Source of the DNA: Candidatus Latescibacterota bacterium
Lineage (GTDB): Bacteria; Latescibacterota; UBA2968; UBA8231
Assembly (NCBI GenBank): GCA_965243025.1
Contig: CBDETY010000003.1
Coordinates: 1,376,001 to 1,440,000 of the forward strand
Length of the DNA stretch: 64,000 bases
Reading direction: 5' to 3'
Numbering within the stretch: the stretch's first letter is position 1; each line of letters starts with the position of its first letter. The notes under the pieces are model-generated. The model was given only the letters and a program-made list of their open reading frames with translations, was not told the origin of the DNA and did not search any database. The translations under genes and the position numbers were made by a program. This document shows, one piece after another, positions 568-62,894 of this stretch.

Positions 568-725
568 CTTGCCAAATCGAAAACCGGCCTCTATCTTCGA
601 AAGTTCGTTTCCTGCAAGGAACTTAGATGCATCTCGCGGGGTGGCGCGAGGTGCAGTTTTTCCAACTTGGAAAGCCGGCTGACCTCGTTGGGCGGGGCGG
701 AAAACAGCAGGCCATACTCGCGAGC

Positions 726-1346
726 ATGGTTGGACTGATCGGAAAAAAACTGGGAATGACCCAGGTCTACAACGACAGGGAGGAGCTCGTTCCCGTCACG
801 GTCGTTGCGGCCGGTCCCTGCCCCGTTGTAGATGTCCGCACGACCGAACGCAACGGCTACACCGCCGTGCAGCTCGGCTTCGAAGAGATCGACCCGCGCA
901 AGGTGAACAAACCCGAGACGGGTCATTTGGCAAGGGCCAATCTTTCCCCCCAGCGCATTCTGCGGGAATTCAGGTCTGCGGGTGTCATCGAGGTCGAGGT
1001 CGGACAAGTGCTCGATGTCAGTCAGTTCGAAGTCGGGGACAAGGTGAAGGTCAGCGGCACCACCAAGGGCAAGGGGTTTGCAGGCGTCGTCAAGAGATAT
1101 GGTTTCGCCGGAAAAAACACCTCGCACGGAACCCCTGACAGGGTTCGCCATCCCGGGTCAATCGGTCAGGGAACAACCCCGGGGAAGGTGTGGAAGGGCA
1201 AGAAAATGCCAGGCCACATGGGCGCCCGCGCCGTTACGACTCGGGGGTTAATCGTGGTAGGGATCGATCCCGACCGGAATCTCCTGTTCGTCAAGGGAGC
1301 CGTTCCGGGCGCTGCCGAAGGGTACGTGACGATCCGCAAACAGTGA
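726..1346 (+). CDS. rplC: 50S ribosomal protein L3 (uL3), outside the S10 operon
   Basis: MVGLIGKKLGMTQ, GYTAVQLG, TKGKGFAGVVKR, PGSIG, KGKKMPGHMG, VKGAVPG. Start set at ATG 726 by homology. Confidence 0.97.
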   Translation: MVGLIGKKLGMTQVYNDREELVPVTVVAAGPCPVVDVRTTERNGYTAVQLGFEEIDPRKVNKPETGHLARANLSPQRILREFRSAGVIEVEVGQVLDVSQFEVGDKVKVSGTTKGKGFAGVVKRYGFAGKNTSHGTPDRVRHPGSIGQGTTPGKVWKGKKMPGHMGARAVTTRGLIVVGIDPDRNLLFVKGAVPGAAEGYVTIRKQ

Positions 1347-1402
1347 AGATCCCCGAAGCGTTCGCGTTTCCGATTCGCAAAACAGCAGAGAAAATGGAGA
1401 GA

Positions 1403-1425
1403 GGCGGCTTCAAAGCCGCTTTTTT

Positions 1426-1427
<2 letters not shown>
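1403..1427 (+). terminator. Rho-independent terminator after rplC
   Basis: GCGGCT-TCAA-AGCCGC hairpin followed by T8. Confidence 0.85.
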
Positions 1428-2864
<1,437 letters not shown>

Positions 2865-7336: not shown

Positions 7337-7562
7337 TACCGATTTCGCAGGCAGCAGTTCGCGGGTTTTTTGAGAATCCTGACATACGAGAATTAAGAAC
7401 CGCGAACAGCGGGCCCGACACAATGCCGTTGCTGTTGGAAAGCGGCTGCGGTTGCCTTTTCACCGGGAGAACCGGCGGTTATATTTCCCCCGTACATTCG
7501 CACTTGGATGCGAGCGGTCATGAATTCCCGAACGTCAAAACCCAAACCCCAGGAGGTACCTT

Positions 7563-8084
7563 ATCGCCAAACAGCAACTGTCATTTACGAGGATCAACGA
7601 CGCCATTCGCGTCCCGGAGATTCGACTGATCAATGCCGACGGGACTCAGGTTGGCATCGTAGGAACATCACAGGCGATGGCGATGGCCGAGGAAGCAGAT
7701 CTGGATCTCGTGGAGGTCGCGCCGGAAGCCAGACCCCCGGTTTGCCGTATCATGGACTACGGCAAATACCGCTTCGACAAAGAGAAGAAAGCCAAGGAGG
7801 CGCGCAAAAAGGGGCAGGCCGTGCAGATGAAGACGGTGCGAATCAAAAGCGCCAACATCAGCGAGCACGACATGGAGTACCGCCTCGGACACATTCGCGA
7901 GTTTATCGGTCAGGGAAATCTGGTGAAAATCAGCATGCGCTTCATGGGCCGTCAGGTGGCTTACCGCGACCGCGGCAGGCAGGTCATGCAGGAAGTCGCA
8001 GAAAAGCTCCTCGACGTCGCCATCGTACACCAACATCCTCAAATGGAAGGCCGCGAGATGTCCATGATCTTGCGGCCTTTGTGA
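7563..8084 (+). CDS. infC: Translation initiation factor IF-3 with non-canonical AUC start
   Basis: DLDLVEVAP, PPVCRIMDYGKY. The IF3 N-terminal motif RINDAIRVPEIRLI lies in frame upstream of ATG 7677. AGGAGGT SD at 7551-7557 is 5 nt before ATC 7563. Confidence 0.93.
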   Translation: MAKQQLSFTRINDAIRVPEIRLINADGTQVGIVGTSQAMAMAEEADLDLVEVAPEARPPVCRIMDYGKYRFDKEKKAKEARKKGQAVQMKTVRIKSANISEHDMEYRLGHIREFIGQGNLVKISMRFMGRQVAYRDRGRQVMQEVAEKLLDVAIVHQHPQMEGREMSMILRPL

Positions 8085-9846: not shown

Positions 9847-9894
9847 AAAAAAATGGGGGACTTCCGCGATCTCCCCTTACTCCCGGAAGCCCCC
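9847..9894 (-). terminator. Intrinsic terminator/attenuator upstream of zapA
   Basis: Minus strand GGGGGCTTCCG...CGGAAGTCCCCC (11-bp stem) followed by A-T7. Confidence 0.7.
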
Positions 9895-9922
9895 TCTGTT
9901 GCGCGCACTACCACGTGGTAGA

Positions 9923-9968
9923 TCACAATATATAGTGTGTCAGAAAAATTGTCAACCACATATTGCGT
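9923..9968 (-). promoter_or_regulatory. sigma70 promoter overlapped by tandem NrdR-like boxes
   Basis: Minus strand TTGACA(9955-9950)-N17-TATATT(9932-9927). Boxes tcaCaAtATaTaGtgt (9923-9938) and caaCcAcATaTtGcgt (9953-9968) resemble the NrdR consensus acaCwAtATaTwGtgt. Confidence 0.7.
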
Positions 9969-10341
9969 TTTTTTTGACTGTTTCATCTTTTTTTCTTGGT
10001 TCCCGGACCCAATTGTTGTGCCGCATGGGCACAATTCGGCAATTGAAAATCACCGTAATCCATTCTGCCTCCTGTAGTTAGAGCTCGACAAGAGGTGACC
10101 GCCCGATTCGAAAGAGCCTTGCCCGACCTTCGCAGAAGAGCCACCGTTGGGCAGCTTGTCAAGGTGCGCAATTATCTGATTTTTCATACCCTTACATCAA
10201 TTATTTCCCGCTTGGGGTAGATTGGGAGGCACCGGGGGGCGCATACTCTACTGACCCTCCCTTCCCTCCGGAGCCTGCTCTCTCACGCCGTTCGATCTGG
10301 TCGTCCGTCAAATTTTCTGATATTCGGATCTTTTTTTCAAG

Positions 10342-14689: not shown

Positions 14690-15733
14690 CTACACCGGAA
14701 ACGGCAGTTCGCTGACGGTTACGAGGGAGGAAGTACCGTTCTCGTCCTCGAACGCCAGCTCCGTGCCGGGAGCGCAGAACTGGTTGCGGACGTAGGCGAG
14801 AGCAATCCTTGAACCCAGAATCGGGGAGAATGCTGTAGATGTTGTTTTGCCCGCCTTGCGTCCATCCCGGGAGACCAGCCTGGAGGATCCCTCGATTCGA
14901 CAGGCAGCGGGAATTCGCAGGCCGACCAGCCGCTGTTTCACCTTGTCGTATGAGTTGAGCCTGGCGATGACTTCCTGGCCGAGATAACACCCCTTGTCGA
15001 GGTTGATGGCACCATCCAATCCGGCTTCCCAGGGATTGTGATCCTCCGTCAGCTCGGTCCCCAATGCGGGCAAACCTTCCTCGATCCTGATGGTTTCGAA
15101 CCCGCCGTCGCTGAGTTGCTCCGCTCCCGCATCGCGCATTTCCAGAATCAAGGTCCCGATGTGGGAAGGATCTCCGATCAGTCGGATGCCTGGCAGGCGG
15201 CCGTAGCGGAGGCCGAGAAGCCACGGCTTCGGACTACCGGTTGAGATCAGGCGGTGTGGCGGGATCGGTTGACCTGCACCTCTCAGCCCCGGGAAGATCC
15301 CGGAAAGAATGGGGACTGACCCAGGACCGATTACCTCCATTGCCCCCGTCCTGGAAGTCAGGTCTTGAATCGAAATCTCCTCGTTGAAGATGAAGCGGTC
15401 GAGCCAGCCGACCAGCCGCCCCCCGCGCGAGGAGGGTATCACAAGGAGGGTGTTGTCATCGTCGAGGCGGGTGAATCCGCCCCAGGAAACGATGCGCCCC
15501 CGATTGTCGGTGAAAACCGCATCAACCCCTTCTCCACGTTGGAGATCGAGAAAATCGTTGGTTGTAAGGCGGTGCAGGATGCCGAGGTGATCGGACCCGG
15601 AGAGAAGAAGACGGGTGAAGGGCGTGATTTCCCTGAAAACCGCCCGATTTCTCGCCGCCGCAGTTTCCACCGTAATTCCGGGGGAGGGGGAGTCCCCCAG
15701 GCTCCATGCCCCGCGTCGGTTGTTTTCAGCCAT
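14690..15733 (-). CDS. ygfZ: YgfZ/GcvT-like folate-binding protein
   Basis: KGCYLGQE signature, RIEEGLP, GcvT-like C-terminus (IALAYV). Confidence 0.85.
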   Translation of the reverse strand: MAENNRRGAWSLGDSPSPGITVETAAARNRAVFREITPFTRLLLSGSDHLGILHRLTTNDFLDLQRGEGVDAVFTDNRGRIVSWGGFTRLDDDNTLLVIPSSRGGRLVGWLDRFIFNEEISIQDLTSRTGAMEVIGPGSVPILSGIFPGLRGAGQPIPPHRLISTGSPKPWLLGLRYGRLPGIRLIGDPSHIGTLILEMRDAGAEQLSDGGFETIRIEEGLPALGTELTEDHNPWEAGLDGAINLDKGCYLGQEVIARLNSYDKVKQRLVGLRIPAACRIEGSSRLVSRDGRKAGKTTSTAFSPILGSRIALAYVRNQFCAPGTELAFEDENGTSSLVTVSELPFPV

Positions 15734-15962
15734 GGTCCAGTCCCGAATTCAAGGGTCGGAATGACCCTTGGGTGCCAGGAGAGAGCCTTGTCCTGCTCCT
15801 CCAAATACAGGAGACCATGGGCAAATGCAAATCCGTTCCCATGGTTTCTCCATCGGTATGGAGTCAAGATATACGTCAAGCATACCCGGGCAATCGATTT
15901 TCCTCCGGAATCCGGGAATCCCTCCGGTCTGGACTGAAATCCCTCGGAAGAGGACCAGTCAG

Positions 15963-15991
15963 TTGCGTGGAAAGACCCATTTGTCTATATT
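15963..15991 (+). promoter_or_regulatory. sigma70-type promoter of greA
   Basis: TTGCGT-N17-TATATT. Confidence 0.65.
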
Positions 15992-16017
15992 GGCGACATC
16001 CCATACGAAAAACCATG

Positions 16018-16056
16018 AGCGGAAGCGACGGGCTGTTTCAAACGCTTCCGCTTTTT
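16018..16056 (+). terminator. Terminator-like hairpin in the greA leader
   Basis: AGCGGAAGCG/CGCTTCCGCT 10-bp stem followed by TTTTGTAT. Confidence 0.55.
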
Positions 16057-16133
16057 GTATGCACCCCTCGCAAGGCATCCTGGGGGGGAATTCTGTATGG
16101 GGTTCGAAGTGTTGGAGGTGGGATCCCCCCGCC

Positions 16134-16165
16134 GCAGCTTGCTCGAGTAGCAGCTTGCTCGAGTA
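16134..16165. repeat. Perfect 16-bp tandem duplication (GCAGCTTGCTCGAGTA x2)
   Basis: Read directly from the sequence, immediately before the greA SD. Confidence 0.9.
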
Positions 16166-16182
16166 CAGGAGAGTGTCATCCA

Positions 16183-16653
16183 ATGAGCGAAGTGTACCTG
16201 TCGAGAGAAGGCTACCAGAAGCTCCAAGAGGAACTGCGTGAACTGAAGGGAACCGAACGTCCGACGGTTCGAGCCGCCCTCCAGCACGCGCGGGAGTTTG
16301 GAGACCTGTCCGAGAACGCAGAATACTCGGCCGCCAAAGAGCGTCTGATGTTTCTCGAGCAGCGAATCAACAAGCTTGAGGAAACCCTCAGCAGGGCGCG
16401 TCTCATCGAAAACGAGAACATCCCGGGGGACAAGGTGTACATCGGGGCTACTGTCGAGCTGCTCGACCTCGAGAAGAACCGGGAGCTTACCTACACCCTG
16501 GTGTCCCCGGAGGAGGCGGACTTCGAGGAGGGGAAGATCTCCACCGTGTCACCGATCGGGAAGGGCCTTCTCGGTCACCAGGAGGGGGAGGAGGTCGAAA
16601 TCCTGGTCCCGGCAGGACGTCTTCACTACAAGATCGTCAGCATTTCCCGTTGA
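16183..16653 (+). CDS. greA: Transcription elongation factor GreA
   Basis: AREFGDLSENAEY, KISTVSPIGKGLLG. AGGAG SD upstream. Confidence 0.96.
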   Translation: MSEVYLSREGYQKLQEELRELKGTERPTVRAALQHAREFGDLSENAEYSAAKERLMFLEQRINKLEETLSRARLIENENIPGDKVYIGATVELLDLEKNRELTYTLVSPEEADFEEGKISTVSPIGKGLLGHQEGEEVEILVPAGRLHYKIVSISR

Positions 16654-27500: not shown

Positions 27501-28637
27501 GCCTCGCAGGTGCTGTACGAATGGGACCCTTACAATCACGGAATCGTTGCCGACCGGGCCGGACGGATCCGGTTCACCGACATTGTCGAAGAGGTCACCT
27601 TGCGGGATGAATTCGACGAAACCACTGGTATGACCGCCCGTGTCATCGTCGAACAGCGCGACCGTTCGTTGAGTCCCCAGCTGGAGGTGGTGTCTCCCGA
27701 GGAGGGAACCAGGTCATTCATCATCCCGGTCGGCGCCCGCCTCCTGGTCGGTGACGGTGACGAGGTTCCGGCCGGGACGGTCCTGGTCAAGATTCCCCGC
27801 GAGCGCACCAAGACGCGGGATATCACCGGCGGTCTTCCCCGGGTCGCCGAGCTGTTCGAAGCCAGGCGCCCCAAGGAGCCGGCGGTGATTTCGGAGATCG
27901 ATGGTGGTGTTTCGTTCGGCGGCATGGTACGCGGAAATCGCGAGGTGCTCGTGGCTTCCCCCGAGGGCGAGGAACGCAAGTATCTGGTGCCCTACGGCAA
28001 ACATCTGCGGGTGCAGGAGGGAGATCAGATCGAGGCCGGAGAGCGGCTGTCTGAAGGTGCGGTCAATCCCCACGACATCCTCCAGGTCCAGGGTGTTCAC
28101 ATGGTTCAGGAGTATCTTGTGAACGAGATCCAGGACGTATATCGCTTGCAGGCGGTTGAAATTAACGACAAACATATCGAAGTCATTGTCCGCCAGATGC
28201 TGCAAAAAGTGCGGGTTCTCGATCCTGGGGATACCAACTTTCTCGAGGGAGAGGAAGTCGACAAGATCAGGTTCAACAGGGAAAACGACAAAGTCATTTC
28301 AGACGGTGGCGACCCGGCAACCTGTCAGCCGATCCTGCTCGGTATCACACGTGCCTCGTTGCGCACGGACAGCTTCATTTCCGCCGCCTCGTTTCAGGAA
28401 ACGACGCGGGTGCTTACCGAGGCCGCGGTTCAGGGCAAGGTCGACCACCTCCGGGGACTCAAGGAAAACGTGATTATCGGACGGTTGATCCCCGCAGGAA
28501 CAGGCACCTCCATGTATCGAACGATATCCTACACGGACCTCGAACCAGAATTCGATGAGATTTCCGAAACTGGCGGAAACGGCGAGGCGCTTGACAGCGA
28601 TTTCCGAGCCGAAGAGGTGACAGTTCTCAGCGAATGA
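24534..28637 (+). CDS. rpoC: RNA polymerase beta' subunit
   Basis: NADFDGD catalytic motif, [18 protein letters not shown]. Confidence 0.99.
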
Positions 28638-28669
28638 ATGCAAGGCTCAGCCGGAAACAAGAGAAGCTG

Positions 28670-28698
28670 TTGACTCATACAATTATTGTGATTAGCTT
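28670..28698 (+). promoter_or_regulatory. sigma70-type promoter of the str operon
   Basis: TTGACT-N17-TAGCTT. Confidence 0.6.
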
Positions 28699-28866
28699 TT
28701 GAGTTTATCAAAAAAACCGGCTTTTTGCATCAACAGGAAGCCGCCTGTTCCGGTTCCCTTCCCTGAATTGCGGTGGAGGGGGAAGGGGACAGACGGCTTT
28801 CCATTGCAGGCTGAACGCCATCGCTTTCTTCAAATCGCTCGATAAGACACGAACGACCTAAAAAGA

Positions 28867-29238
28867 TTGCCAACCATCAATCAACTGGTCCGCAAGGGCC
28901 GCAAGAAACTGTCAAAACGCCGGGATGCTCCAGCCCTGCAGGGCTGCCCACAGCGGCGCGGGGTGTGCACGCGTGTATACACTACGACTCCAAAAAAACC
29001 TAACTCCGCCTTGAGAAAAATGGCGCGCGTTCGGCTTACCACAGGCCAGGAAGTTGCCGCTTACATCCCCGGTGAGGGAAATAATCTCCAGGAGCACTCG
29101 ATCGTCCTGGTGCGTGGAGGCAGGGTCAAGGATGTTCCCGGTGTCCGCTATCACATAATTCGGGGCGTCCTGGACACGAGCGGAGTTTCGGAGCGCAAGC
29201 AGAGCCGCTCGAAATACGGAGCGAGAAGGGAATCCTGA
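28867..29238 (+). CDS. rpsL: 30S ribosomal protein S12
   Basis: [25 protein letters not shown]. Confidence 0.98.
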
Positions 29239-29708
29239 TGTCGCGCAGGCGCCGGGCCGTCAAGCGTCAGATCCTTCCGGACCCGAAATACAACAGCGTA
29301 CTTGCGACCCGTTTCATCAACTGCCTGATGACAAGGGGAAAGAAGAGCGTTGCGGAGCGTATCTTTTACAACGCCGTGGAGATGGTTACCCGGAGATCTG
29401 ACCAGCAGGGAATCGACGTGTTCCTGAAGGCAGTGGAAAACTGCAAGCCGATTGTCATCACCAAATCCCGGCGGGTGGGATCGCAGACCTACCAGGTGCC
29501 CCTTGAAGTCCGTCCAGAGGAACGCACAACGCGTGCCATCAAGTGGCTCATCCGGTATGCCCGGGAACGCACCGAAAGGACAATGGCCGACCGGCTCGCC
29601 AACGAGCTTCTGGCGGCATCCAAAGGAGAAGGAGGGGCGGTGCGGGCGCGCGATGACGTTCACCGAATGGCCGAAGCCAACAAGGCGTTCGCCCATTACC
29701 GCTTCTAG
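29238..29708 (+). CDS. rpsG: 30S ribosomal protein S7
   Basis: [23 protein letters not shown]. Confidence 0.98.
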
Positions 29709-29728
29709 GTCGGTTCAAACCAGCAACC

Positions 29729-31807
29729 ATGGCACGGAATTTCAGCATAGAGGCGACCCGAAACATCGGAATCGCCGCCCATATCGATGCGGGAAAGACG
29801 ACCACGACCGAGCGGATTCTGTACTATGCCGGGCGGCTGCACCGCATGGGAGAAGTCCATGACGGCACCACCGCCATGGACTGGATGGACCAGGAGCGCG
29901 AGCGTGGCATAACGATCACCTCCGCCGCTACCGCGTGCGCGTGGAAGGGCCACCAGATCAACATCATCGACACCCCGGGGCATGTCGATTTTACCGCCGA
30001 AGTCGAGCGTTCACTGAGAGTACTCGACGGTTCGATCGGCGTCTTTTGCGCCGTCGGCGGAGTCGAGCCCCAGTCCGAGACGGTCTGGCGACAGGCCGAC
30101 CGCTACCAGGTGCCCCGTATCGCATTTGTCAACAAGATGGATCGAAACGGGGCCGATTTTTTGCGTGTCCTCGAGATGCTGCACGAACGGCTCGGCAGCA
30201 ACTTTGTCCCGATTCAGCTCCCGATCGGTTCGGGTGAAACCTTCACCGGGCTGATCGACCTTATCGATATGAAGGCGACTACCTACGAAGAGATGTCGCT
30301 GGGGGCGAAGTTTCACGAAGGGGAGATCCCCGACGACCTGCTGCCTCAGGCCCTCAAGTACCGCGAAAAACTGCTCGAATCCGTTGCCGAGTTCGACGAC
30401 CACCTGCTCGAGAAATTTCTCGAAGGCCAGGAGGTCGCGCGCAGCGAGCTCCTCCCGGCGCTGCGGAAAGCGACGATTTCGTTGAAGGCCGTGCCCGTGG
30501 TTTGTGGAAGTGCCTTCCGCTACAAGGGAGTGCAGAAGCTCATCGACGCCGTCGTGGACCTGCTGCCGTCACCGGTCGACGTGCCGCCGGTTTCCGGAAC
30601 CGTGCCCCACGGGGAAGAGGTGGTGGAGCGGGTCGCCGGCGATGGCGAACCTTTCGCCGGCCTTGCGTTCAAAATAATGACCGATCCATTCGTCGGCAGG
30701 TTGTCCTTTGTCCGGGTCTATTCGGGCACCTTGGAAGCCGGGTCGTACATATACAACCCGGGAACCGGGAAACGGGAGCGGGTCTCGCGGCTTCTCGAGA
30801 TGCACGCAAACGACCGCACCGAGCGCAAGGCTGTTCACGCCGGCGATATCGTCGCCATTGTGGGATTGAAGGACACTACCACCGGCGATACGCTTTGCGA
30901 TGAAATGAACCCTCTTCTCCTCGAGAAGATCGAATTTGCGAAACCGGTCCTGCACGTAGCGGTCGAACCGAAAACCCGTGCTGATCAGGAGCAGCTGTTC
31001 GCCGCCCTCACCAAGCTCAGCGATGAAGACCCGACCTTTGTCGTGCGCATCGATGAGGAGACCGGGCAAACGGTCATTTCAGGAATGGGCGAATTGCACC
31101 TGGAGATCCTGATCGACCGTCTTTTCAGGGAGTTCAAAGTAGCGGCGAAAGTGGGCAAACCTCAGGTGGCATACAAAGAAGGCCTGGGACAGGCGGTGCA
31201 GGCTACCGGCCGATTCGTACGCCAAACCGGTGGCCGCGGGCAGTACGGTCACGTGGAAATCGAAATCGAGCCGGGCGAGCCTGGCAGCGGCATGGTCTTC
31301 GATTCGAAGATCAGCGGAGGCTCGATTCCGCGCGAATACATCTCCTCGGTTCAGCAAGGTATCCAGGAGGCGATGACGAGCGGGCCGATGGCGGGTTATC
31401 CCGTGGAGGACGCCAGGGTCTTTCTGGTCGATGGCTCCTACCACGAGGTCGACTCATCCGAAATGGCCTTCAAGGTGGCGGGGTCGATGGCCTTCAGGGA
31501 CGGGGCAAAGAAGGCGAAGCCGTTTCTGATGGAGCCTGTCATGGACCTCGAGGTGGTCGTCCCGGAGCAGTATCTCGGCGACGTGATCGGCGATCTGACT
31601 TCTCATCGCGGTGATATTCAGGGTGTCAACACGCGATCCGATGCCCAGGTAATCGCTTCGCAGATTCCCCTGTCGGAGGCTTTCGGTTACGCGACGCGCC
31701 TGAGGTCCCTTACGCAGGGCCGCGCCGTTTTCACCATGCAGTTTGCAAAGTACGAGAGGGTTCCGGCCCAGATCAGCGAGGAAATCGTAGATTCTGCGGG
31801 TCGATGA
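29729..31807 (+). CDS. fusA: Elongation factor G
   Basis: [31 protein letters not shown]. Confidence 0.98.
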
Positions 31808-31865
31808 TCCGGCTCGCTCCGCACACCGATTCGAATGAGACAGAAAAAGGAGAGTTGAAAACGAC

Positions 31866-33059
31866 ATGGCGAAGGAACAATTCGAACGAACAAAGCCCCA
31901 CGTGAACATCGGCACTATCGGGCATGTCGATCACGGAAAAACCACGCTGACGGCGGCGATTACCCTGAACCTGGCCACCAAGGGCTTCGCCGAGGCCAAG
32001 TCGGTCGACGACATCGACAACGCCCCGGAAGAGAAGCAGCGAGGGGTTACGATCAACGTTTCCCATCAGGAGTACGAGACCGAATCGCGTCATTACGCCC
32101 ACGTAGACTGTCCCGGCCACGCGGACTACATAAAGAACATGATCACCGGCGCCGCCCAGATGGATGGCGCGATTCTCGTGGTCAGCGCCGCCGATGGACC
32201 CATGATTCAGACCCGGGAACACATACTCCTGGCCCGGCAGGTAAACGTTCCGCGGATCGTCGTCTATATGAACAAGGTCGACATGGTCGATGACCCCGAG
32301 CTTCTGGATCTCGTCGAACTGGAAACCCGGGAACTGCTGTCGGAATACGATTTTCCGGGTGATGACATTCCCGTCGTGCGTGGATCCGCCCTGAAAGCCG
32401 TGGAAGGGGAGGACAGCGAGATCGGCACCGGGTCGATCGAGGAGTTGATGCAGCACGTCGACGATTACATCCCGATGCCGGAGAGACCTGTCGACCAGCC
32501 CTTCCTGATGCCGATCGAGGATGTATTCAGCATCACCGGCCGCGGAACCGTAGGTACCGGCCGCATCGAGCGCGGCCGCGTCAAGACCGGAGAGGATGTC
32601 GAAATCGTCGGCATCAAGGAAACCCGGAAGACGGTGTGCACCGGGGTGGAGATGTTCCGCAAGATTCTGGATGAGGGAGAGGCGGGCGACAACGTCGGAC
32701 TGCTTCTCCGCGGCGTTGAAAAAGAGGAGCTTTTGCGCGGCATGGTGCTCTGCCAGCCCGCTAGTATTACTCCCCACACCAAATTCAAGGCGGAGGTGTA
32801 CGTGCTGACGGCCAAGGAAGGCGGCCGCGAGAAGCCGTTCTTCACCGGGTACCGGCCGCAGTTCTATTTCCGCACGACCGACGTTACTGGAGCGATCACC
32901 CTGCCGGAAGGAACGGAGATGGTAATGCCAGGCGACAACGTAACTATGGATGTCGACCTGACTCCCGTTCCCATCGCGATCGAAGAGCAGTTGCGCTTCG
33001 CGATCCGCGAAGGCGGCCGCACGATCGGTTCGGGAGTCGTGGTCAGCATCGCCGAATAG
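31866..33059 (+). CDS. tuf: Elongation factor Tu
   Basis: [30 protein letters not shown]. Confidence 0.99.
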
Positions 33060-33087
33060 GGCGGACAAGGGACGGACGGGACTCCCC

Positions 33088-33396
33088 GTGGCAATAGATC
33101 GAATACGCATACGCTTGAAGGCCTACGACCATGCCGCTTTGGACAGGTCTGTCGACGAAATCGTTCAGACAGTCAGGCGAAGCGGTGCGCGAATTGCCGG
33201 CCCGGTTCCCCTGCCTACCGACAGGACGGTTTACACCGTGCTGCGCGGTCCGCACGTCGACAAGAAGTCCCGTGAGCAGTTCGAGACGCGTATTCACAAA
33301 CGCCTGATCGACATCTACGATTCGACCCCGCAAACCGTCGATTCCCTGATGAAGCTCGATCTGCCCGCCGGAATCGGCATCGATATCAAGGTCTGA
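33088..33396 (+). CDS. rpsJ: 30S ribosomal protein S10
   Basis: [29 protein letters not shown]. Confidence 0.98.
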
Positions 33397-33403
33397 GGAC
33401 AGG

Positions 33404-34045
33404 TTGGCGGTGAAAACAAGTGTCGAGGTGGTAAATATCGATGGCGGGAAAGCCGGCACTGTCGAACTTCCGGAACACTTGTTTGGTGCCGAGGTCAACG
33501 AGAACGCCGTCTACAGCGCAGTGGTTGCGTACGAAACCCACCAACGACAAGGTACCGCCTCCACGAAAACCCGTTCGGAGGTCAATCGTACCGGGCGAAA
33601 GCACCACCGCCAAAAGGGAACCGGCCAGGCTCGACGGGGGACGGCGGCCACCAATCTGCTTCGCGGGGGCGGCGTGGCTTTCGGCCCCAAGCCGCGGTCC
33701 TATTCTCATAAGCTGACCAAGCAGCTGAAGAGGAAAGCGTTTTCTTCGGCGTTGACGCGGAAAAGTCGAGATGGACGGCTTGTCGTTGTCCAGGATTTCG
33801 AGTTTTCCGAGCCAAGTACCAAGTCTTTTGTCCGGGTGCTCGGCGCGGTCGGCCTCGAGGGAGAAAAAGTGCTTTTTGTGACCCCCCAAAGCCGGGAGAC
33901 ACTGGTCAAATCCTGCCGCAATATTCCAGGCATTGAAATAAGGCCTGCGAATAACGTTTCGACCTATGACGTGGTTTCGGCCAGTACCGTGTTGATGACG
34001 GAGAAGGCGGTTGCCGCACTTGCGGGAATTCACTCGGGCAAATGA
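33404..34045 (+). CDS. rplD: 50S ribosomal protein L4
   Basis: [31 protein letters not shown]. The start may be GTG 33410. Confidence 0.96.
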
Positions 34046-34329
34046 CAAATCCACGCACTGTATTACATGCCCCGGTGGTCACCGAAAAGGCGACGAATCT
34101 GCGCGATCGCAACACCTATACCTTCAAGGTCGATCGCCGGGCCAACAAGATCCAGATTCGGAACGCGATCGAATCGATCTTCGATGTCAGAGTCCAATCG
34201 GTCAGGGTCGTGAACGTTCGTCGCAAGCCGAAGCGGCAAGGGATGTTTGCAGGTTCCACCAGTGCGTGGAAAAAAGCCTACATAACCTTGCGGGCGGGCG
34301 ACACCATCGAATTCCTCGAGGCCGTATAA
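34042..34329 (+). CDS. rplW: 50S ribosomal protein L23
   Basis: [21 protein letters not shown]. Confidence 0.96.
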
Positions 34330-35159
34330 TGGCTGTCAAGAGATTCAGACCGACTACGCCGACGCAGCGCTACAAGACGGTCAATTCCTTTGAGGATGTG
34401 ACTGCGTCTTCCCCCGAGAAGAGCCTGACATCAGCCCTGTCGAAAAGCGGGGGGCGCAATAACCGTGGCCGCATAACGATGCGCCGCCGCGGAGGCGGCC
34501 ACAAACGACGCTACCGGATTGTCGACTTCAAGCGCGACAAGGATGGGGTGGAAGGGAAGGTGGCGACGATAGAATACGATCCGAATCGCTCGGCATTCAT
34601 TGCGTTGATCTTCTACCGTGACGGGGAAAAGCGATACATCCTCGCTCCGCAGGGGCTGAAGGTTGGCAGCCCGGTTAATTCGGGCCCGGAGGCTCCCATC
34701 GCTGTCGGGAATGCATTGCCCTTGTCGAGGATCCCAGTCGGGTCGACAGTTCACAATATCGAGCTGAATCCCGGGCAGGGCGCACGTCTGGCCCGTAGCG
34801 CAGGGGTCGGGGTTCAGCTCATGACCAGGGACGAACGCCGGGCGCAGCTGAGGATGCCGTCAGGCGAAATTCGCGAGGTCCCGGTCCAGTGTCGGGCTAC
34901 CCTGGGCCAAGTCGGGAATACCGACCACGGCAACGTGGTTCTCGGGAAGGCGGGCAGGTCGCGCTGGCTTGGAAGGCGGCCCAAGGTTCGCGGGGTGGTT
35001 ATGAATCCAGTCGATCATCCCCACGGGGGGGGCGAAGGCAAGTCGTCGGGAGGGAGACACCCCGTGACTCCGTGGGGCAAGCCTACCAAGGGATGCAAGA
35101 CTCGTCGCAGGGGCAAGAAGTCGGATCCCTGGATAGTCCGGCGGCGTGGAGTCAAGTAG
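34329..35159 (+). CDS. rplB: 50S ribosomal protein L2
   Basis: [31 protein letters not shown]. Confidence 0.98.
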
Positions 35160-35183
35160 CCTCAGTCAGGCAGAAAGACAGAA

Positions 35184-35471
35184 ATGGCCAGATCGGTAAA
35201 AAAGGGCCCGTTTGTAGACGACAAGCTGGCTGCCAGAATCGAAGACCTGAACCGGACCGGCGAAAAGAAGGTTCTGCAGACCTGGTCCAGGCGGTCTACG
35301 ATCACTCCTGATTTTCTAGGGCATACGCTGGCGGTTCACAACGGCAACAAGTTCATTCCGGTCTATATCACCGAGAATATGGTGGGGCACAAGCTCGGGG
35401 AGTTTGCACCGACCAGGACTTTTCGAGGTCACGGCGGCCGGACAACCGAGCGCACCACCGGAGTCCGTTGA
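35184..35471 (+). CDS. rpsS: 30S ribosomal protein S19
   Basis: [25 protein letters not shown]. Confidence 0.98.
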
Positions 35472-35479
35472 GAATCCCG

Positions 35480-35869
35480 ATGCAAGCGAGAGCTGTTGCC
35501 AGGCAGGTGGGCGTGCCGGCCACCAAGGTACGCCAGGTGATCGACCTGATCCGCAACCGGCCTGTTGAAGAGGCGCTTACAATTCTCAGGTTTTCAAACA
35601 GAGCGGTAGCGGGAACCATCGAAAAGACCCTGCGCTCGGCCATTTCCAACGCCGTTAACCAGGACGAAGAGAACCCGGTCGACGCCGGCGACCTGATCGT
35701 CCAATCGGTTTTCGCCGACGAAGGGCGAGACCTGAAACGGATCAGGCCTCGCGCCCGCGGCGCTGCTCATCGAATCCGCAAGCGCCACAGCCACATTACC
35801 GTCGTCGTCACGGACGAGACTGATCCCGGGAGCAGCCGGGCAAACGAAATCGAAAAGGGGCAGGAATAG
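35480..35869 (+). CDS. rplV: 50S ribosomal protein L22
   Basis: KVRQVIDLIR, SAISNA, RPRARG, SHITVVV. Confidence 0.96.
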   Translation: MQARAVARQVGVPATKVRQVIDLIRNRPVEEALTILRFSNRAVAGTIEKTLRSAISNAVNQDEENPVDAGDLIVQSVFADEGRDLKRIRPRARGAAHRIRKRHSHITVVVTDETDPGSSRANEIEKGQE

Positions 35870-36541
35870 TTGGGGCAGAAAACACATCCATACGGATTCA
35901 GGCTGGGCATCATCAAGGGATGGCGATCCAACTGGTTTACCGACAGGGAATACCCGGAACTCCTCAAGGAGGACCTGATGCTTCGTCGGTACATCCATCA
36001 ACGCCTGCAAAGAGCCGGTGTCTCTCGTATCAACATCGAACGCCGTCCCAAGAGAGTTACAATCGAGGTGTTCACGGCGCGTCCGGGAATTGCCATCGGT
36101 CGTCGGGGCGCGGAGGTGGACAAGCTGAGGGACGAATTGAAGCAGCTGACCGCAAAGGATGTGTCGCTGAATATCCAGGAAGTGAAGAAGCCGGAACTCG
36201 ATGCCCAGCTTGTCGCGGACAACCTCGCCCGCCAACTCGAACAGAGAGTCGCATTTCGCCGCGCTCTCAAGAAGTCGGTGGCTTCGTCGATGCGCATGGG
36301 TGCGGAGGGAATCCGGATTGTTTGCTCAGGCCGCATCGGTGGAGCCGAGATGTCCCGGCGCGAGCGTTCCGAGCCCGCGGGGAGGGTTCCACTGCACACC
36401 CTCCGGGCCGACATCGATTACGCCACCGCCACCGCATTCACGATATCGGGTACGGTTGGGGTGAAGGTCTGGATCTGTCATGGAGAAGTCGTCGAGGAAG
36501 ACGAAATGGCCAGCGACGCCATAGGCCAGAGACAGGGATAG
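35870..36541 (+). CDS. rpsC: 30S ribosomal protein S3
   Basis: [32 protein letters not shown]. Confidence 0.98.
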
Positions 36542-36551
36542 GGTCAGACCC

Positions 36552-36968
36552 GTGTTGATGCCGAAAAAAACGGAATGGCGCAAGCAGAACCGTGGCCGCA
36601 TGAGAGGACAGAGCAAGGGTGGGGCCATGGTTTCGTTCGGGGAGTTCGGCCTCAAGGCGCTCGAACCGGGATGGATCAGCAACCGACAGATCGAGGCTGC
36701 CCGAATCGCGATCAGCCGGGCCATGAGTCGAACCGGAAAGATGTGGATTCGCGTTTTTCCCGATAAGCCGATTACCAAGAAACCAGCCGAAACCAGGATG
36801 GGAAAAGGAAAGGGAGCTCCCGAAGGTTGGGTCGCGGTGGTAAAACCTGGCCGCATCATGTTTGAGCTGTCGGGTGTTCCTCTGGAAATGGCCAAGGAAG
36901 CCTTGCGGAAGGCTGGAAACAAACTGCCGATCAGGACAAAATTCGTCGAGAGGACTGGCGGGGTTTGA
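36552..36968 (+). CDS. rplP: 50S ribosomal protein L16
   Basis: [24 protein letters not shown]. Confidence 0.98.
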
Positions 36969-37201
36969 AAGCGGGTGAACTGAGAGAGCAGAATGTCGGG
37001 GAATTGACCCGGCGCCTGGATGAGCTGACCGAGGAGCGTTTCAATCTCAGGTTCCAGCATGCCCTGGGTCAGTTGAGCAGTCCGATCAGGTTGCGGGAGG
37101 TGAGGCGTGAACTCGCAATTGTGCGCACTGTATTGCGCGAGCATTTCCTGGGAATCCGCGTGCTTCCCTCGGGCTCGGAAGAAAAAGCGGGCAACGGATA
37201 A
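36965..37201 (+). CDS. rpmC: 50S ribosomal protein L29
   Basis: [18 protein letters not shown]; position in the operon. Confidence 0.94.
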
Positions 37202-37245
37202 GAACCCATGCAAAGTAGAACTACCAGCCTCTTTGTGAGAGACAA

Positions 37246-37518
37246 ATGAGAAAAGCAGGGGACAGAGGCGGTCGGATATTCGAAGGCACTATCGTGCGCG
37301 CGCGGAATGACAAGACTCGCGTCGTTCAGATCGATCAACGTTTGACGAACACTCTGTATGGACGTCGCATAAAGCGGATTGCAAAATTCGTTGCCCACGA
37401 TGAAAAGAACCAATCCGAAGTCGGCGACGTAGTGCGCATTCGTGAAACCCGACCCTTGAGCCGCACGAAGCGATGGAGACTGGTCGAGATAATTAAAAAA
37501 GCCCAGGCTGGAAAGTGA
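37246..37518 (+). CDS. rpsQ: 30S ribosomal protein S17
   Basis: AHDEKN, GDVVRIRETRPLSRTKRWRL. Confidence 0.94.
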   Translation: MRKAGDRGGRIFEGTIVRARNDKTRVVQIDQRLTNTLYGRRIKRIAKFVAHDEKNQSEVGDVVRIRETRPLSRTKRWRLVEIIKKAQAGK

Positions 37519-37541
37519 ATGGTTGAAGAGGTCATTACACA

Positions 37542-37910
37542 ATGGTAAGGGAATATTCGGTCCTCAGGATGGCGGACAACGCCGGCGCGCGACGGGCCAG
37601 GTGTATCCGCGTTTTGGGCGGTTCGCGGAAACGCTACGCCGGAGTCGGCGACATGGTTGTCGTGGCAGTGCACGACGTGACTCCCAACGGACCTCTGAAA
37701 GAAGGGGATGTCTGCCGGGCTGTAGTCGTGCGCACAAAGAAGGAGTTCCGTCGGCCGGACGGTTCCTACATCCGCTTCGACGACAATGCCGCTGTCCTTC
37801 TCGACACCAACAATGAACCGCGCGGGACTCGCATTTTCGGTCCCGTGGCTCGCGAGCTGAGAGACCGCCAATTCATGCGCATCGTCTCCTTGGCCCCGGA
37901 AGTGGTATAG
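37542..37910 (+). CDS. rplN: 50S ribosomal protein L14
   Basis: [33 protein letters not shown]. Confidence 0.97.
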
Positions 37911-56474: not shown

Positions 56475-57422
56475 GTGATAGAGGTAAACGACCTGTCGAA
56501 GTACTACGGCGACGTGCCGGCCATCGACGGCGTGTCGTTCAGGGTAGAGAAGGGACAGATTCTCGGTTTTCTCGGTCCCAACGGAGCGGGAAAAACCACG
56601 ACGATGCGGGTCCTGACCTGCTACCTGCCGCCATCGAGCGGCAGCGCCTCGGTCGACGGCCACGACGTGGTCGAGGAATCGCTCGAGGTCCGCAAGCGCA
56701 TCGGCTACCTCCCGGAGCTGCCGCCCCTCTACAGCGACATGACAGTCGATTCATACCTGGGTTTCGTCGCCAGGATAAAGGGGGTGCCCGGTCCGGAGAT
56801 CAGCGCGCGAATGGACGAGACCATGGAACGGACCGGAATCGCCCATGTCCGCAGCCAGGTAATCGGCCACCTGTCCAAGGGTTACCGCCAGCGGGTAGGG
56901 CTCGCCCAGGCGCTGGTTCACAACCCGAGCGTTCTCATTCTCGACGAGCCGACGGTCGGACTCGACCCGAAGCAGATCATCGAGATCCGCGAGACCATCA
57001 GGGGATTGGGGGGAGACCACACCATCATCCTCAGCACCCACATCCTGCCCGAGGTCAGCATGACCTGCGAGAAGGTGGTTATCATCAACGCAGGCCGCAT
57101 AGTCGGGGAGGGTACGCCCGAAAGCCTGATCGCCGAGTTGAAGGAAGGGGAGATGCTGCGCGCCCAGGTCGCCGGGCCCCCGGAGGAGATCCGCTCGGCC
57201 ATAGAGGGTGTGGAAGGGGTCATCGAGGTGCGCGAGGACACCGCCGGCGGCAGCGGCGGCGCCGATACGGTCTTCATCGTCACCGCGGCTCCGGGAAGGG
57301 AGATCAGGGACCAGGTCGCCAAGCGGCTCGTCGACGGAGGTTACGGACTGCGCGAGCTGCGCGGCCTCGAGATGACCCTTGAAGATATTTTCCTGCGCCT
57401 GACCACCGAGGAGGAGGCTTGA
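56475..57422 (+). CDS. ABC transporter ATP-binding protein (GldA-like)
   Basis: GPNGAGKTT, LSKGYRQRVGLAQA, ILDEPT, STHIL. Confidence 0.93.
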   Translation: MIEVNDLSKYYGDVPAIDGVSFRVEKGQILGFLGPNGAGKTTTMRVLTCYLPPSSGSASVDGHDVVEESLEVRKRIGYLPELPPLYSDMTVDSYLGFVARIKGVPGPEISARMDETMERTGIAHVRSQVIGHLSKGYRQRVGLAQALVHNPSVLILDEPTVGLDPKQIIEIRETIRGLGGDHTIILSTHILPEVSMTCEKVVIINAGRIVGEGTPESLIAELKEGEMLRAQVAGPPEEIRSAIEGVEGVIEVREDTAGGSGGADTVFIVTAAPGREIRDQVAKRLVDGGYGLRELRGLEMTLEDIFLRLTTEEEA

Positions 57423-58210
57423 AGATGCGCAACCTGCTCGCCGTTTACTCCAAGGAGATGCGGTCGTACTTCGTGTCACCGGTAGCCTACGTGATCGCCG
57501 GGGTGTTCCTGTTCCTGTCGGGTTACCTGTTCCGCAACATCCTGATGCAGTTCAACTGGTGGTGCCTTCAGTACAGCCAGCGGGCCCAGTACATGGACGC
57601 CAGCGGCATGCCGCCCCTCAACCTGAACGAGATGGTGGTGACCCAGTTCTTCGCGGTCATGGACTTCATCTGGCTGCTCGTGGTGCCGATGCTGACGATG
57701 CGGCTGTTCGCCGAGGAGAAGAAAACGGGGACGATCGAGCTGCTGATGACGTCGCCGATCTCGACGACCCAGATCCTGCTCGGAAAGTTCTTCGCCTGCT
57801 TCACGCTCTACACCGCCATCGTCGCCCTGACCCTCGTGTACTGCGGCATCCTCGAAGTTTACGGCGATCCGGACTGGGGACCGATCTGGTCCGCCTATCT
57901 CGGGTACCTGCTGCTCGGGGGCACCTTCATCGGCGTCGGCATTCTCGCATCCGCCGTCACCGAAAACCAGATCGTCGCCGTGCTTCTCGCCTTCGGCGCC
58001 CTCCTGCTGCTCTGGCTGATCGACTGGTCGGCGAGCTTCGCCGGTCCGACTCTGGCCAAGATCCTCCAGTACCTGTCGATCATCCAGCACCTCCAGGACT
58101 TCCAGCGCGGCGTCATCGACACCAAGGACGTCGTCTTCTACCTGAGCTTCGTTTTCTTCACCCTGTTCGCCACCGGCCGCGTCATCGAGTCGAGACGCTG
58201 GCGGCGGTAA
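57419..58210 (+). CDS. ABC-2 type permease (GldF-like)
   Basis: KEMRSYFVSPVAY, MRLFAEEKKTGTIELLMTSP, ENQIVA, RGVID. Confidence 0.9.
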   Translation: MKMRNLLAVYSKEMRSYFVSPVAYVIAGVFLFLSGYLFRNILMQFNWWCLQYSQRAQYMDASGMPPLNLNEMVVTQFFAVMDFIWLLVVPMLTMRLFAEEKKTGTIELLMTSPISTTQILLGKFFACFTLYTAIVALTLVYCGILEVYGDPDWGPIWSAYLGYLLLGGTFIGVGILASAVTENQIVAVLLAFGALLLLWLIDWSASFAGPTLAKILQYLSIIQHLQDFQRGVIDTKDVVFYLSFVFFTLFATGRVIESRRWRR

Positions 58211-58231
58211 GGGGACGGCAATCGAATCGCG

Positions 58232-61200
58232 ATGAAAGCGTATACCACCCACATCAGCCTGGCCGGCGCCGCCCTCGCACTCATGGGGGCGCTGGCGCTG
58301 GCTCTCGATCCCGAGGAAACGGGCGTACAGCTCGCCTGCCTCGGGGCCGGGGTGCTGGTGATCGCGGTCTGCGCCGCGATCAACCCCGCCCTGTTCAAAC
58401 AGTACTCGAGCTGGCTCAACGCCCTGTGGGGGAGCATCCTGGTGCTGTTGATCGTCGTCATGGTCAACTTCGTCACCAGTTCCCACCCGCAGCGGTACGA
58501 TCTCACCGCGGGAAAGCTCCACAGCCTCTCCCCCCTCACGGTGGAGTCGCTGCAGGGGCTCGACAGCGAAGTGCGCGTCCTCGCCTTCATGGAGAAGGGG
58601 GAAAACGAGAAGCTCGAGAGCCTGCTCGAGCAGTACTCGACGTACAGCGGCTCCTTCGATTTCGAGCTCGTCGATCCCGACCGCGATCCCCGGAGAACGA
58701 GCGACTACGGCATCCGCCGCTACAACACCGTCGTTGTCGAGTCGGGCGAGAAGCAGCAGAAGGTGACCGAGCTGACCGAGAAGGAACTCACCAACGCGAT
58801 GCTCAAGGTGACCCGGGACCGCCAGTCCTTCGTCTATCTCACCGTCGGCCACGGCGAGAAGGGGGTTTCCCAGACCGAACTCGGGCTCAGCAGACTGCGG
58901 GACCGCCTGCAGGAGATCGACTACGTGGTCGAGGACTCGCTTTTCCTCGCCAGGGCCGGCGAAGTCCCGGGCGACTGCGCGGTGCTGGTCATCGCCGGGC
59001 CGCAGTCTCCGTTCTTCAGCACCGAAGCGGAGGCAATCGCGCGCTACCTCGACGCCGGAGGCTCGGTCATCGCCCTCCTCGACCCGGCCAACGAGAGCGG
59101 ACTGGAGGCGCTGTTCGCTTCATGGGGGGTCGAGTTGGGGGACGACTTCGTCATCGACACGAGCGGAATCGGGAGCCTGTTCGGTCTCGATTTCACCATT
59201 CCCGTCGCCGTCAGCTACGACCAGGAGCATCCGCTGGTCAGCAAGCACCGTTCGGGCACCATGACCTTCTTCGAGCTGGCGCGCTCGGTCCGCTTCGTCG
59301 GGACCGAATCCGTCGAAGGTGTGGAGCTGGTAACGACGAGCAGCCAGAGCTGGGCCGAGCGGGATCTCAGCGCCCTCCAGCCCGGACAGGGGAAGCGCAC
59401 GGTATCGCTGGACGAGGGCGTCGACCGGGCCGGCCCGGTAGCCCTGGGGGTCGCCGCGAAGCGGCAGGAGGGCGGCAGGCTCGTCCTCTTCGGCGATTCT
59501 GACTTTGCCAGCAACCGCTATTTCGACCTCCAGGGAAACGGCGATCTCATCCTCAACGCGATCAGCTGGCTGGCCGCGGACGAGGGCCTGATCTCCATCA
59601 GGCCGCGCGAGGCCGGCTTCAACCCGATCGCGCTGACCGACAGCCAGTCGGAATGGATCTTCTGGGTCGGCGTCATCCTGTATCCTCTGGCGGTTGCCCT
59701 CGCCGGCTTCTTCGTCGTCTCGAGCAAGGGCCGCTGGAGCGTGCGCGATCTCCTGGCCGCCGGGCTCGGACTGGCGCTGTCCCTCGGCATCGTCACCCTG
59801 GTGAACTTCATCGGCGACCGCTATCACAGCCGTCTCGATCTGACCGCGGACGGCCTGTTCACCCTGTCCCCGAAAACGCGGGATCTGCTCGAGCGGGCCG
59901 AACGGCAGGACCGCCTCATTACCGTCAAGGCGTTCACTTCCGAGATCGAGTCGATGCGCTTTCGCGAATTGATGGACGAGTACAGTTACGAGACGCGCAA
60001 CTTCGATTACGAGATAGTCGATCCGCAGCAGCGCTCCCTGGAATGGAAGCAGCACGGGGTAACCGTCCGGGGAACCTCCCTCGTCGAGGTGTCGGGGGAC
60101 GGCAAGGTGCACAGCGAACGCATCGAGGAACAGACCGAAGAGGCGCTGAGCAACGCGATCAAGAGCGCCCTCGATGCCCGCGAGCGCCGCATAGCGTTCA
60201 TCGGCGGGCACGGCGAGGGAATGCTGACGGAAGTCGGCGGGGAGGGGTTCAGCATACTCAACGGGCGCCTGAAGGAGTTGAATCTGCAGATCGACGAGGG
60301 CGTCCGGCTCGACGGCGCCCCGATAGCGGCGCAGACGCTGGTCCTCCTCGGCCCGAAGCAGCCGTTGTCGGCGGTCGAGGCGGTGGCATTCGAAGCCCTC
60401 CTCCGCAAGGGCAAGGACGCTCTTGTCCTCACGGATCCAGGTGTCGACACCGGGCTCGAATCCGTGCTGGAGGGGTACGGTATCGAACTGGGGAACGACT
60501 TCGTCGTCGACCTGAGCGGTATCGGGCAGCTCCTCGGCGCCGACGTTTCGGTTCCCGTCGTGATCCAGTACGGCAACCACCCGGCCACCGGAAAGATCGG
60601 CTCCGGCACGATGAGCTTCTTCCCGTTTGCGCGCTCGGTTACTCCGGCTGCGGACGAGGTCGCCGGCTCGGAAATCACCGCCCTGGCCTTCACCCACCGC
60701 AGCAGCTGGGGGGAGACCGATCTGTCGCCGCTGGCAGGAGAGGGAGGGCAGGTCGAGTTCGATCCGGAGAAGGACCGCCAGGGCCCCCTGTCGCTGGCGG
60801 TAGCGGTCAAGGCCGATCCCGACAGCGCCGCCAGCGGCGACAAGACCCGTCTCGCGGTCTTCGGGGACTCCGACTTCGCCCGCAACCAGTACTTCGGCCA
60901 GCAGGCCAACGGCGAGCTGTTGATCGGGGCCCTGAAATGGGTGACCGAGAGCGAGGATCGTCTGGCGATTCCCGTGAAACGCCCCGCCTTCAACCCCATC
61001 AACCTCGTCGGCAACCAGGGGGACGTGGTGCTGTGGGTCTCGGTGTTCGTGCTGCCTTTCGCCGTCGCCCTGTCGGGATTCGTCATCATGCTGCGCCGCG
61101 GCTACGCGGCCTACTCTTCCGGGTTTGTCCGCTGGCTGATGTACTCCCACTTCTCGGCGGCAACCGGTCTCTTCGGCCTGGCGACGGTGGCGGTCGCCGA

Positions 61201-61456: not shown

Positions 61457-61459
61457 GAG

Positions 61460-62884: not shown

Positions 62885-62894
62885 AGGGGGGAGG

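Follow-up and report, generated by a model that had tools for sequence, protein, structure and literature searches.

A stand-alone rplC gene about 32 kb from the S10 cluster and its occurrence in related uncultured bacteria

How has the gene for ribosomal protein uL3 come to stand outside the S10 cluster at this locus, and is the gene in its new place the genome's own? The original prediction for the stretch of DNA analysed here (64 kb in full length, hereafter the window) had read the arrangement as an uncoupling of uL3 expression from the operon, brought about either by translocation of rplC or by its replacement with a xenolog. We consider it highly probable that the rplC seen here is the genome's own, that it left the S10 cluster in some distant ancestor, and that it was fixed about 32 kb before rpsJ as a monocistronic unit. 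The features concerned are collected in Table 1.

The rplC gene, its neighbours and the S10 cluster

For comparison, species-representative genomes were scanned with uL3, which gave 80 loci, and homologues of the window's genes were placed around them by tblastn; the 25 closest loci retrieved (L001–L025), in which uL3 is 65–75% identical to that of the window, are called the relatives in the following. An intact rplC at some 32 kb from the S10 cluster, as had been claimed, was confirmed: the product matched TIGR03625 over the full profile (positions 1–202 of 202) with 272.2 bits (cut-off 142.9), and PF00297 with 45.3 bits (cut-off 22). The frame is of normal length, namely 206 aa compared with 203–207 aa in the relatives except for L021 and L025, the former with a uL3 of 183 aa due to an early stop and the latter with a uL3 cut by the contig end. 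In L021 (10001–10552), the uL3 ORF ends after 183 codons while the tblastn similarity reaches residue 204; a frameshift or an error of sequencing in the metagenome-assembled genome (MAG) is the probable cause of the early stop. The closest uL3 relatives in the database are 92, 92, 84 and 81% identical to the window protein. When the entire window was searched with uL3 by tblastn, neither a second copy nor a remnant was found, the next match having only E = 0.07. The composition at uL3 is also ordinary, with a GC content of 0.60 compared with 0.6025 for the window, and the idea of a compositional island there was rejected in the absence of any anomaly.

The start of rplC had originally been placed near 688; instead, the coding sequence begins at ATG 726, which is the predicted true start given that uL3 of all 25 relatives begins at the aligned M[VAG][GA]LIGKKLG and thus at that Met. 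An N-terminally extended uL3, from ATG 627 or from a start around 688, was also considered and rejected; longer ORFs (239–255 aa) are indeed called for uL3 in the database, but their N-terminal extensions have no similarity to one another.

Both neighbours of rplC lie on the opposite strand, the GT9-like gene being divergent from and hinT convergent with rplC. The placement of rplC between a GT9 gene and hinT is borne out by the ORFs, by the PF01230 match of hinT and by the context in the relatives; hinT also matched NF007965 with 118 bits, which is under the cut-off of that model. The GT9 label itself holds by homology and comes from the relatives: the window fragment (1–567) has no Pfam match, but in 22 of the 25 relatives the corresponding position is taken by an ORF with 25–36% identity to it, and three full-length relatives of this ORF match PF01075 (GT9).

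The S10 genes are found 32 kb beyond rplC in a supercluster, secE-nusG-rplKAJL-rpoBC-rpsLG-fusA-tufA-rpsJ-rplDWB-rpsS-rplV-rpsC-rplP-rpmC, extending as far as rplQ, whose str-S10-spc-alpha order is canonical in the Pfam map apart from the missing rplC. Indeed, all genes from rplD through rpmC follow directly behind rpsJ in the canonical order (Pfam, 33404–37201), where the order check spanned 33404–37201 and the expected slot of rpsQ (37201–37542) lies outside the scan. In place of the canonical rpsJ-rplC-rplD, rplC is absent between rpsJ and rplD. Of what had been claimed for this junction, the end of rpsJ at 33396 and the absence of any rplC remnant hold, whereas the gap of 7 nt is probably to be revised. 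The start of rplD could be TTG 33404 (7-nt gap) or GTG 33410 (13-nt gap), and the latter appears more likely from the N-termini of related uL4 proteins; of six such sequences, four start at the residue matching 33410, the three closest among them. With 7–13 nt between rpsJ and rplD, there is no room for rplC.

A leader RNA of the S10 operon was looked for as well. The gap between tufA and rpsJ, at 28 nt, is too small for an S10 leader, and no Rfam family at the gathering score corresponded to an E. coli-type L4-responsive leader RNA before rpsJ, the only matches at that score being three tRNAs. At E ≤ 1, no leader RNA family was found in 28600–33500, and the uL3 leader and 28600–33500 gave only sub-threshold chance matches (sraL with 18 bits vs 39, miRNA and snoRNA).

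Table 1. Positions of the rplC unit, its neighbours and the rpsJ–rplD region in the window
Feature	Position	Strand	Remarks
GT9-like (heptosyltransferase family) gene, N-terminal 189 codons	1..567	-	ORF cut by window edge; homology to relatives
Sigma-70-type promoter-like element, TTGCCA-17 nt-TATCTT	569..597	+	Abuts GT9 start codon
uL3 5' leader, about 121 nt	604..725	+	Transcription start inferred
rplC (uL3)	726..1346	+	206 aa, intact; TIGR03625 and PF00297
Predicted intrinsic terminator common to rplC and hinT	1394..1429	.	Hairpin 1403-1419, T8 1420-1427 (sequence and fold)
hinT (HIT-family nucleotide hydrolase)	1426..1800 (start approximate)	-	PF01230, 96.6 bits
tufA	31866-33059	+	28 nt ahead of rpsJ
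rpsJ (uS10)	33088..33396	+	NF001861, 155 bits; PF00338
rpsJ-rplD junction	33397..33409	+	Usual rplC site; GAGGA overlaps rpsJ stop
rplD (uL4)	33410..34045	+	TIGR03953, 218 bits; Pfam map

Distribution among relatives and origin of the gene

The stand-alone rplC had been implied to be singular to this genome, but the same uL3 context was encountered in all of the 25 relatives retrieved. Neither S10 nor L4 was found in the fetched flanks of any of them (0 of 25), and for 12 of them these flanks extend over the full 10 kb to either side. Upstream of uL3, 22 of the 25 relatives have a GT9-like gene on the opposite strand, as has a 23rd at a looser threshold, and in two loci the upstream sequence is shorter than 130 nt. 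Downstream, a convergent hinT is present in 23 relatives, the other two loci ending at uL3. Also, the synteny with the window extends for about 10 kb downstream and covers the genes for a GT2 protein, an AP-endonuclease-2 family protein, a 2-hydroxyacid dehydrogenase, PfkB, infC and zapA. The uL3 proteins of the stand-alone group share as little as 63% identity, which means that the clade is deep. The adjacency of rpsJ and rplD was read directly in the window alone, and the evidence from the relatives concerns the uL3 side, within the fetched flanks. Among the 55 loci from other phyla, where uL3 is at most 57% identical, uL3 directly follows S10 in 52 and is directly followed by L4 in 53; two Saccharibacteria loci depart from this, as do one locus starting 39 nt before uL3, one contig ending after uL3, and L038. 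Taken together, these gene contexts indicate that the stand-alone uL3 is typical of the lineage, old and inherited.

In terms of taxonomy, the 25 relatives are labelled in NCBI as Latescibacterota (12 loci), as Gemmatimonad* (12 loci) and as “uncultured bacterium” (one locus), and on the uL3 tree the Latescibacterota and Gemmatimonad* labels are fully intermingled. For example, uL3 of L017 (Gemmatimonadetes) and that of L018 (Latescibacterota) differ at one residue. The MAG of L022 is listed in Table 1 of PMC9874027 as Latescibacterota;UBA2968;UBA8231 of GTDB, and the clade, as far as this table goes, includes the Latescibacterota class UBA2968. According to the available part of the same source, eight of nine Latescibacterota MAGs had first been labelled Gemmatimonadetes (PMC9874027). 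We propose from these comparisons that the arrangement would be a shared derived character of a deep uncultured clade in the FCB group.

Whether the relocated gene is native was approached with trees. In the uL3 tree (81 rows, IQ-TREE, LG+C20), all 26 stand-alone uL3 sequences fall into a single clade (100/99), the sister of which is Tariuqbacter plus Cloacimonadota (93/77). Another tree was built from seven proteins (uS10, uL4, uL23, uL2, uS19, uL22 and uS3) of the window and the outgroup loci (41 rows), with the omission of thirteen near-duplicate alphaproteobacterial (Hoeflea-like) rows and of L038 and L074, both of which have fewer than four of the genes. In this tree, the window is joined with Tariuqbacter (95/46), then with Chitinispirillales (92/85) and then with Cloacimonadota (90/55); both the window and L028 have long branches in this concatenated analysis, and their join was flagged by the tool. 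Support is weak for the deep nodes to the FCB outgroups (93/77 and 90/55). In an AU test on uL3, the union of the clade with four FCB-group outgroups was not rejected (p = 0.404), where the group tested was named after the trees had been seen and the outgroups had been picked by uL3 similarity. The comparison of a uL3 tree with a concatenated ribosomal-protein tree, which the original prediction had proposed, accordingly places uL3 and the seven-protein set in the same FCB neighbourhood.

Furthermore, uL3 and uL4 divergence track each other across shared contigs. When the matches of the two proteins were paired by identical nucleotide totals of their contigs (up to 7.05 Mb), the uL3/uL4 identities on five contigs were 92/81, 81/71, 75/64, 70/60 and 69/57%; among the pairs is the 113,171-nt contig of L013, which has uL3 but no uL4 in its first 13 kb. 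In a search of 5.8 billion proteins with uL3, all of the best 120 matches listed are at least 65% identical; 21 of these 120 have a source name and 11 name an organism, which are ten of Gemmatimonad*/Latescibacter* and one “Verrucomicrobia bacterium” MAG. The match with this Verrucomicrobia label is 71% identical.

Several other explanations need to be weighed against the loss of the native rplC from the S10 cluster in a distant ancestor. Given that both halves of the arrangement, the detached rplC and the closed rpsJ–rplD junction, are directly visible in the window only, the rearrangement could be thought of as recent and private to this genome or its genus; nonetheless, the same context recurs where uL3 is 65–75% identical to that of the window and 63% identical among the relatives, and about 10 kb of downstream synteny is kept with it, so that this explanation is almost certainly wrong. 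We give just as little credence to an artefact of assembly or binning, by which rplC would have been dropped from the S10 cluster or misjoined in the source assembly: the same uL3 context occurs in the assemblies of 25 relatives with many different isolate names, the junction is a clean 7–13-nt spacer with a Shine-Dalgarno sequence, and uL3 and uL4 are found on contigs of equal size, up to 7.05 Mb. A xenolog, namely a foreign uL3 that settled between the GT9 gene and hinT and was followed by loss of the native operon copy, would account for a gene that lies outside the operon with its own signals, like an acquired gene, and the weak deep nodes in both trees leave room for a donor within or near the FCB group or one that is unsampled. 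The conflict between gene trees expected for a xenologous replacement is, however, absent, since uL3 and the seven-protein set have the same outgroup neighbours (AU p 0.404); no foreign donor lineage appears among the best 120 uL3 matches listed, the uL3 and uL4 identities fall in parallel on the five contigs, and the composition at uL3 is ordinary. We hence regard a xenolog as unlikely. The FCB neighbourhood shared by both trees, the outcome of the AU test and the parallel identities of uL3 and uL4 point to a native gene that has moved, and of the two routes originally suggested, it is translocation, with a native gene in a lineage-wide context, that fits the data.

As for the course of such a translocation, rplC would have been duplicated to its new site before the copy in the operon was cleanly lost, which is the likeliest order of events for an essential gene. 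The S10 cluster would then have been resealed, with rplD placed 7–13 nt behind rpsJ and provided with its own Shine-Dalgarno sequence.

Transcription signals of the rplC unit

The promoter-like element in front of rplC is the sole one that a consensus scan found within 400–1900. Its generalized form, TTGCnn-N17-TAnnnT, occurs exactly once ahead of uL3 in each of the 25 examinable loci, namely the window and 24 relatives (L010, with 65 nt upstream, was left out). The spacer is 17 nt in every locus even though 16–18 were allowed, and the motif lies 44–152 nt ahead of the uL3 ATG. In the entire 64-kb window, on both strands, the motif has two matches, while 1.9 are expected by chance; with the motif at chance level across the window (about 2 per 64 kb), chance does not account for its occurrence ahead of uL3 in every examinable locus. 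The other match in the window (15963–15991, plus strand) is found some 200 nt ahead of the GreA domains encoded by the ORF at 15706–16653 and is possibly the promoter of greA.

At the other end of the gene, a GC hairpin followed by T8, with comparable elements in 16 of 24 relatives, agrees with the earlier claim that rplC has its own terminator. The element (1403–1427) was seen in sequence and fold and was not listed by the consensus scanner; as in terminators that work in both directions, the purine-rich tract before the hairpin lengthens the stem, and the whole overlaps the hinT stop codon (1426–1428). The 24 relatives counted are those with downstream sequence, and eight of them have no obvious hairpin and T-run behind uL3.

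The promoter, the start and the terminator of the rplC unit are consensus-based predictions, and transcription would start from the sigma-70-type promoter, proceed through the leader and the 206 codons, and end at the hairpin and T8 shared with the convergent hinT. From the orientation of the genes together with the predicted promoter and terminator, we argue for a monocistronic transcript and hence for rplC as a monocistronic transcription unit by anatomy. The uncoupling of uL3 expression that had been suggested therefore stands in so far as the gene is physically apart and has the anatomy of a unit of its own (promoter motif, terminator and opposite-strand neighbours), but not in the xenologous route to it. 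With rplC apart from the S10 operon, the amount of uL3 would be matched through promoter strength and translation and not through co-transcription.

The leader of the window has an 11-bp hairpin with 7 GC pairs at 628–655 that is followed by GTTTTT, and no Shine-Dalgarno-like sequence is present in 700–725 before the ATG. Its folding is no better than that of shuffled sequences (z = −0.53), and the scanner found three terminator-like sites against 1.5 expected, which is not an enrichment over shuffles. Across the loci, the inferred leader is 37–145 nt long; in 17 of the 24 relatives it is 37–67 nt long with low predicted folding energy. Also in 17 of the 24, an SD-like motif is present in the leader, mostly AAGGA or AGGAG, and six of the 24 are, like the window, without such a sequence (L001, L007–L009, L011 and others). 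L001, the closest relative retrieved, has an inferred leader of 145 nt without an SD-like motif, and from promoter to ATG this leader (in 9850–10000) is taken up by a unit of about 17 nt in several tandem repeats. A conserved structure of the uL3 leader was rejected, as the lengths vary and the sequences do not align, and a hairpin followed by a U-run was not found in the leaders of the 24 relatives. In a database relative from the same 90%-identity cluster, furthermore, the F-F of the window is replaced by F-I in a spurious upstream ORF, which would mean, as deduced from the protein, that the U-run is interrupted there.

These observations bear on whether the leader in the sub-lineage of the window could be a transcription attenuator that regulates uL3, comparable to the action of L4 at the E. 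coli S10 leader. The hairpin at 628–655 and GTTTTT within a leader of about 121 nt that has no Shine-Dalgarno sequence would suit such a device; against it, three terminator-like sites vs 1.5 expected and a fold z of −0.53 are what shuffled sequence also gives, the leaders of 17 of the 24 relatives are short (37–67 nt) with low predicted folding energy, the U-run is apparently interrupted in the relative from the same 90% cluster, and the leader has no Rfam match. We therefore consider an attenuator very unlikely. The more ambitious proposal, in which the move of rplC marks a class- to phylum-level lineage (Latescibacterota UBA2968, perhaps with further groups), deliberately decouples uL3 from more than 30 ribosomal genes and, in addition, goes together with a leader acting as a uL3- or growth-rate-responsive attenuator, would be quite unlikely when taken as a whole. 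The preferred reading remains that of a native rplC that moved in a distant ancestor and would be served by a conserved promoter.

Comparison with other arrangements and significance

Ribosomal genes that are ordinarily stand-alone units include, for example, rpsA and rpsT in E. coli and rpsD in B. subtilis, and the window rplC is like them in being one gene with its own predicted promoter and its own predicted terminator; unlike these genes, uL3 is not normally stand-alone, and no autoregulatory element is evident for the window rplC. A break between S10 and L3 is also familiar from cyanobacteria, plastids and archaea, in which S10 is found with str/EF-Tu and L3 heads an L3-L4-L23-L2 block. 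The window shares with them the broken rpsJ–rplC link and the position of rpsJ directly behind tufA, but while L3 is still joined to L4 in those organisms, it is detached on both sides in the window, where rpsJ has been rejoined to rplD.

In the E. coli S10 operon, as described in the available parts of two sources, rplC is the second gene and L4 exerts its control at the leader (PMC3616713, PMC13001810), and the L4-responsive S10 leader RNA is, in the available part of the former, narrowly distributed (PMC3616713). Like the canonical S10 operon, the window keeps the order from rplD to rpmC behind rpsJ within the str-S10-spc-alpha supercluster; unlike it, rplC is missing from position 2 and stands 32 kb off as a unit of its own, and rpsJ, in contrast to the E. 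coli operon, lies 28 nt behind tufA with no leader.

Single breaks next to rplC were also noticed among the outgroup loci. In L038 (8376–13896), a MAG labelled “uncultured bacterium”, the opposite strand behind tufA-rpsJ-rplC carries genes for a hypothetical protein, an Orn/DAP decarboxylase and a phosphofructokinase; such unrelated genes behind rplC mean that the cluster is broken between rplC and rplD or that the contig is chimeric. In Saccharibacteria L060 (3000–5900) and L075, rplC-rplD is present with no recognisable rpsJ upstream, and the ORFs just upstream of rplC in L060 have no Pfam match. These three cases, which are single MAG contigs, have one break each, whereas rplC of the window is isolated on both sides and the operon is resealed. 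What is particular here is hence the combination of rplC detached on both sides, a resealed operon, and a new site fixed across a deep clade.

A literature search, outside of which subscription journals and supplements lay, found, among the papers listed, no published description of this arrangement; an apparent match of Gemmatimonadetes with rplC was the chromatography term RPLC and was discarded. The stand-alone rplC belongs to a kind of change that is known, namely the rearrangement of ribosomal gene order, as an instance that has gone undocumented, and it opens no long-standing question. Rare and clean changes of the supercluster are nonetheless useful characters for deep bacterial relationships, and the one described here is common to genomes that stand under two different phylum names in public records. 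Also, uL3 is usually among the syntenic ribosomal-protein marker sets, and sets of such markers taken from a single contig will miss uL3 in this lineage unless the contigs exceed 30 kb. Given that uL3 is an initiator of 50S assembly, the lineage furthermore provides a natural case in which an early-assembly ribosomal protein would be produced from a separate promoter, and it is usable for the study of stoichiometry without co-transcription.

Some features elsewhere in the window may be mentioned. In infC (IF3; 7527–8084, plus strand), the ATG ORF at 7677 begins at position 29 of the Pfam N-domain profile, and the frame is open upstream with IF3-like sequence, which means that the real start codon is probably none of ATG, GTG and TTG; such a start codon is usual for infC. 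This infC is not followed by rpmI-rplT, and the next gene is of the PhyH family and lies on the opposite strand. Toward the end of the window (56475–63968, plus strand), GC3 is 0.79–0.92 in the last genes compared with 0.64–0.78 elsewhere, and the genes in question are those for an ABC ATPase, for an ABC-2 permease, for a 1074-aa ABC_transp_aux/DUF7088 protein and for a DUF4340 protein, besides one ORF that has no Pfam match.
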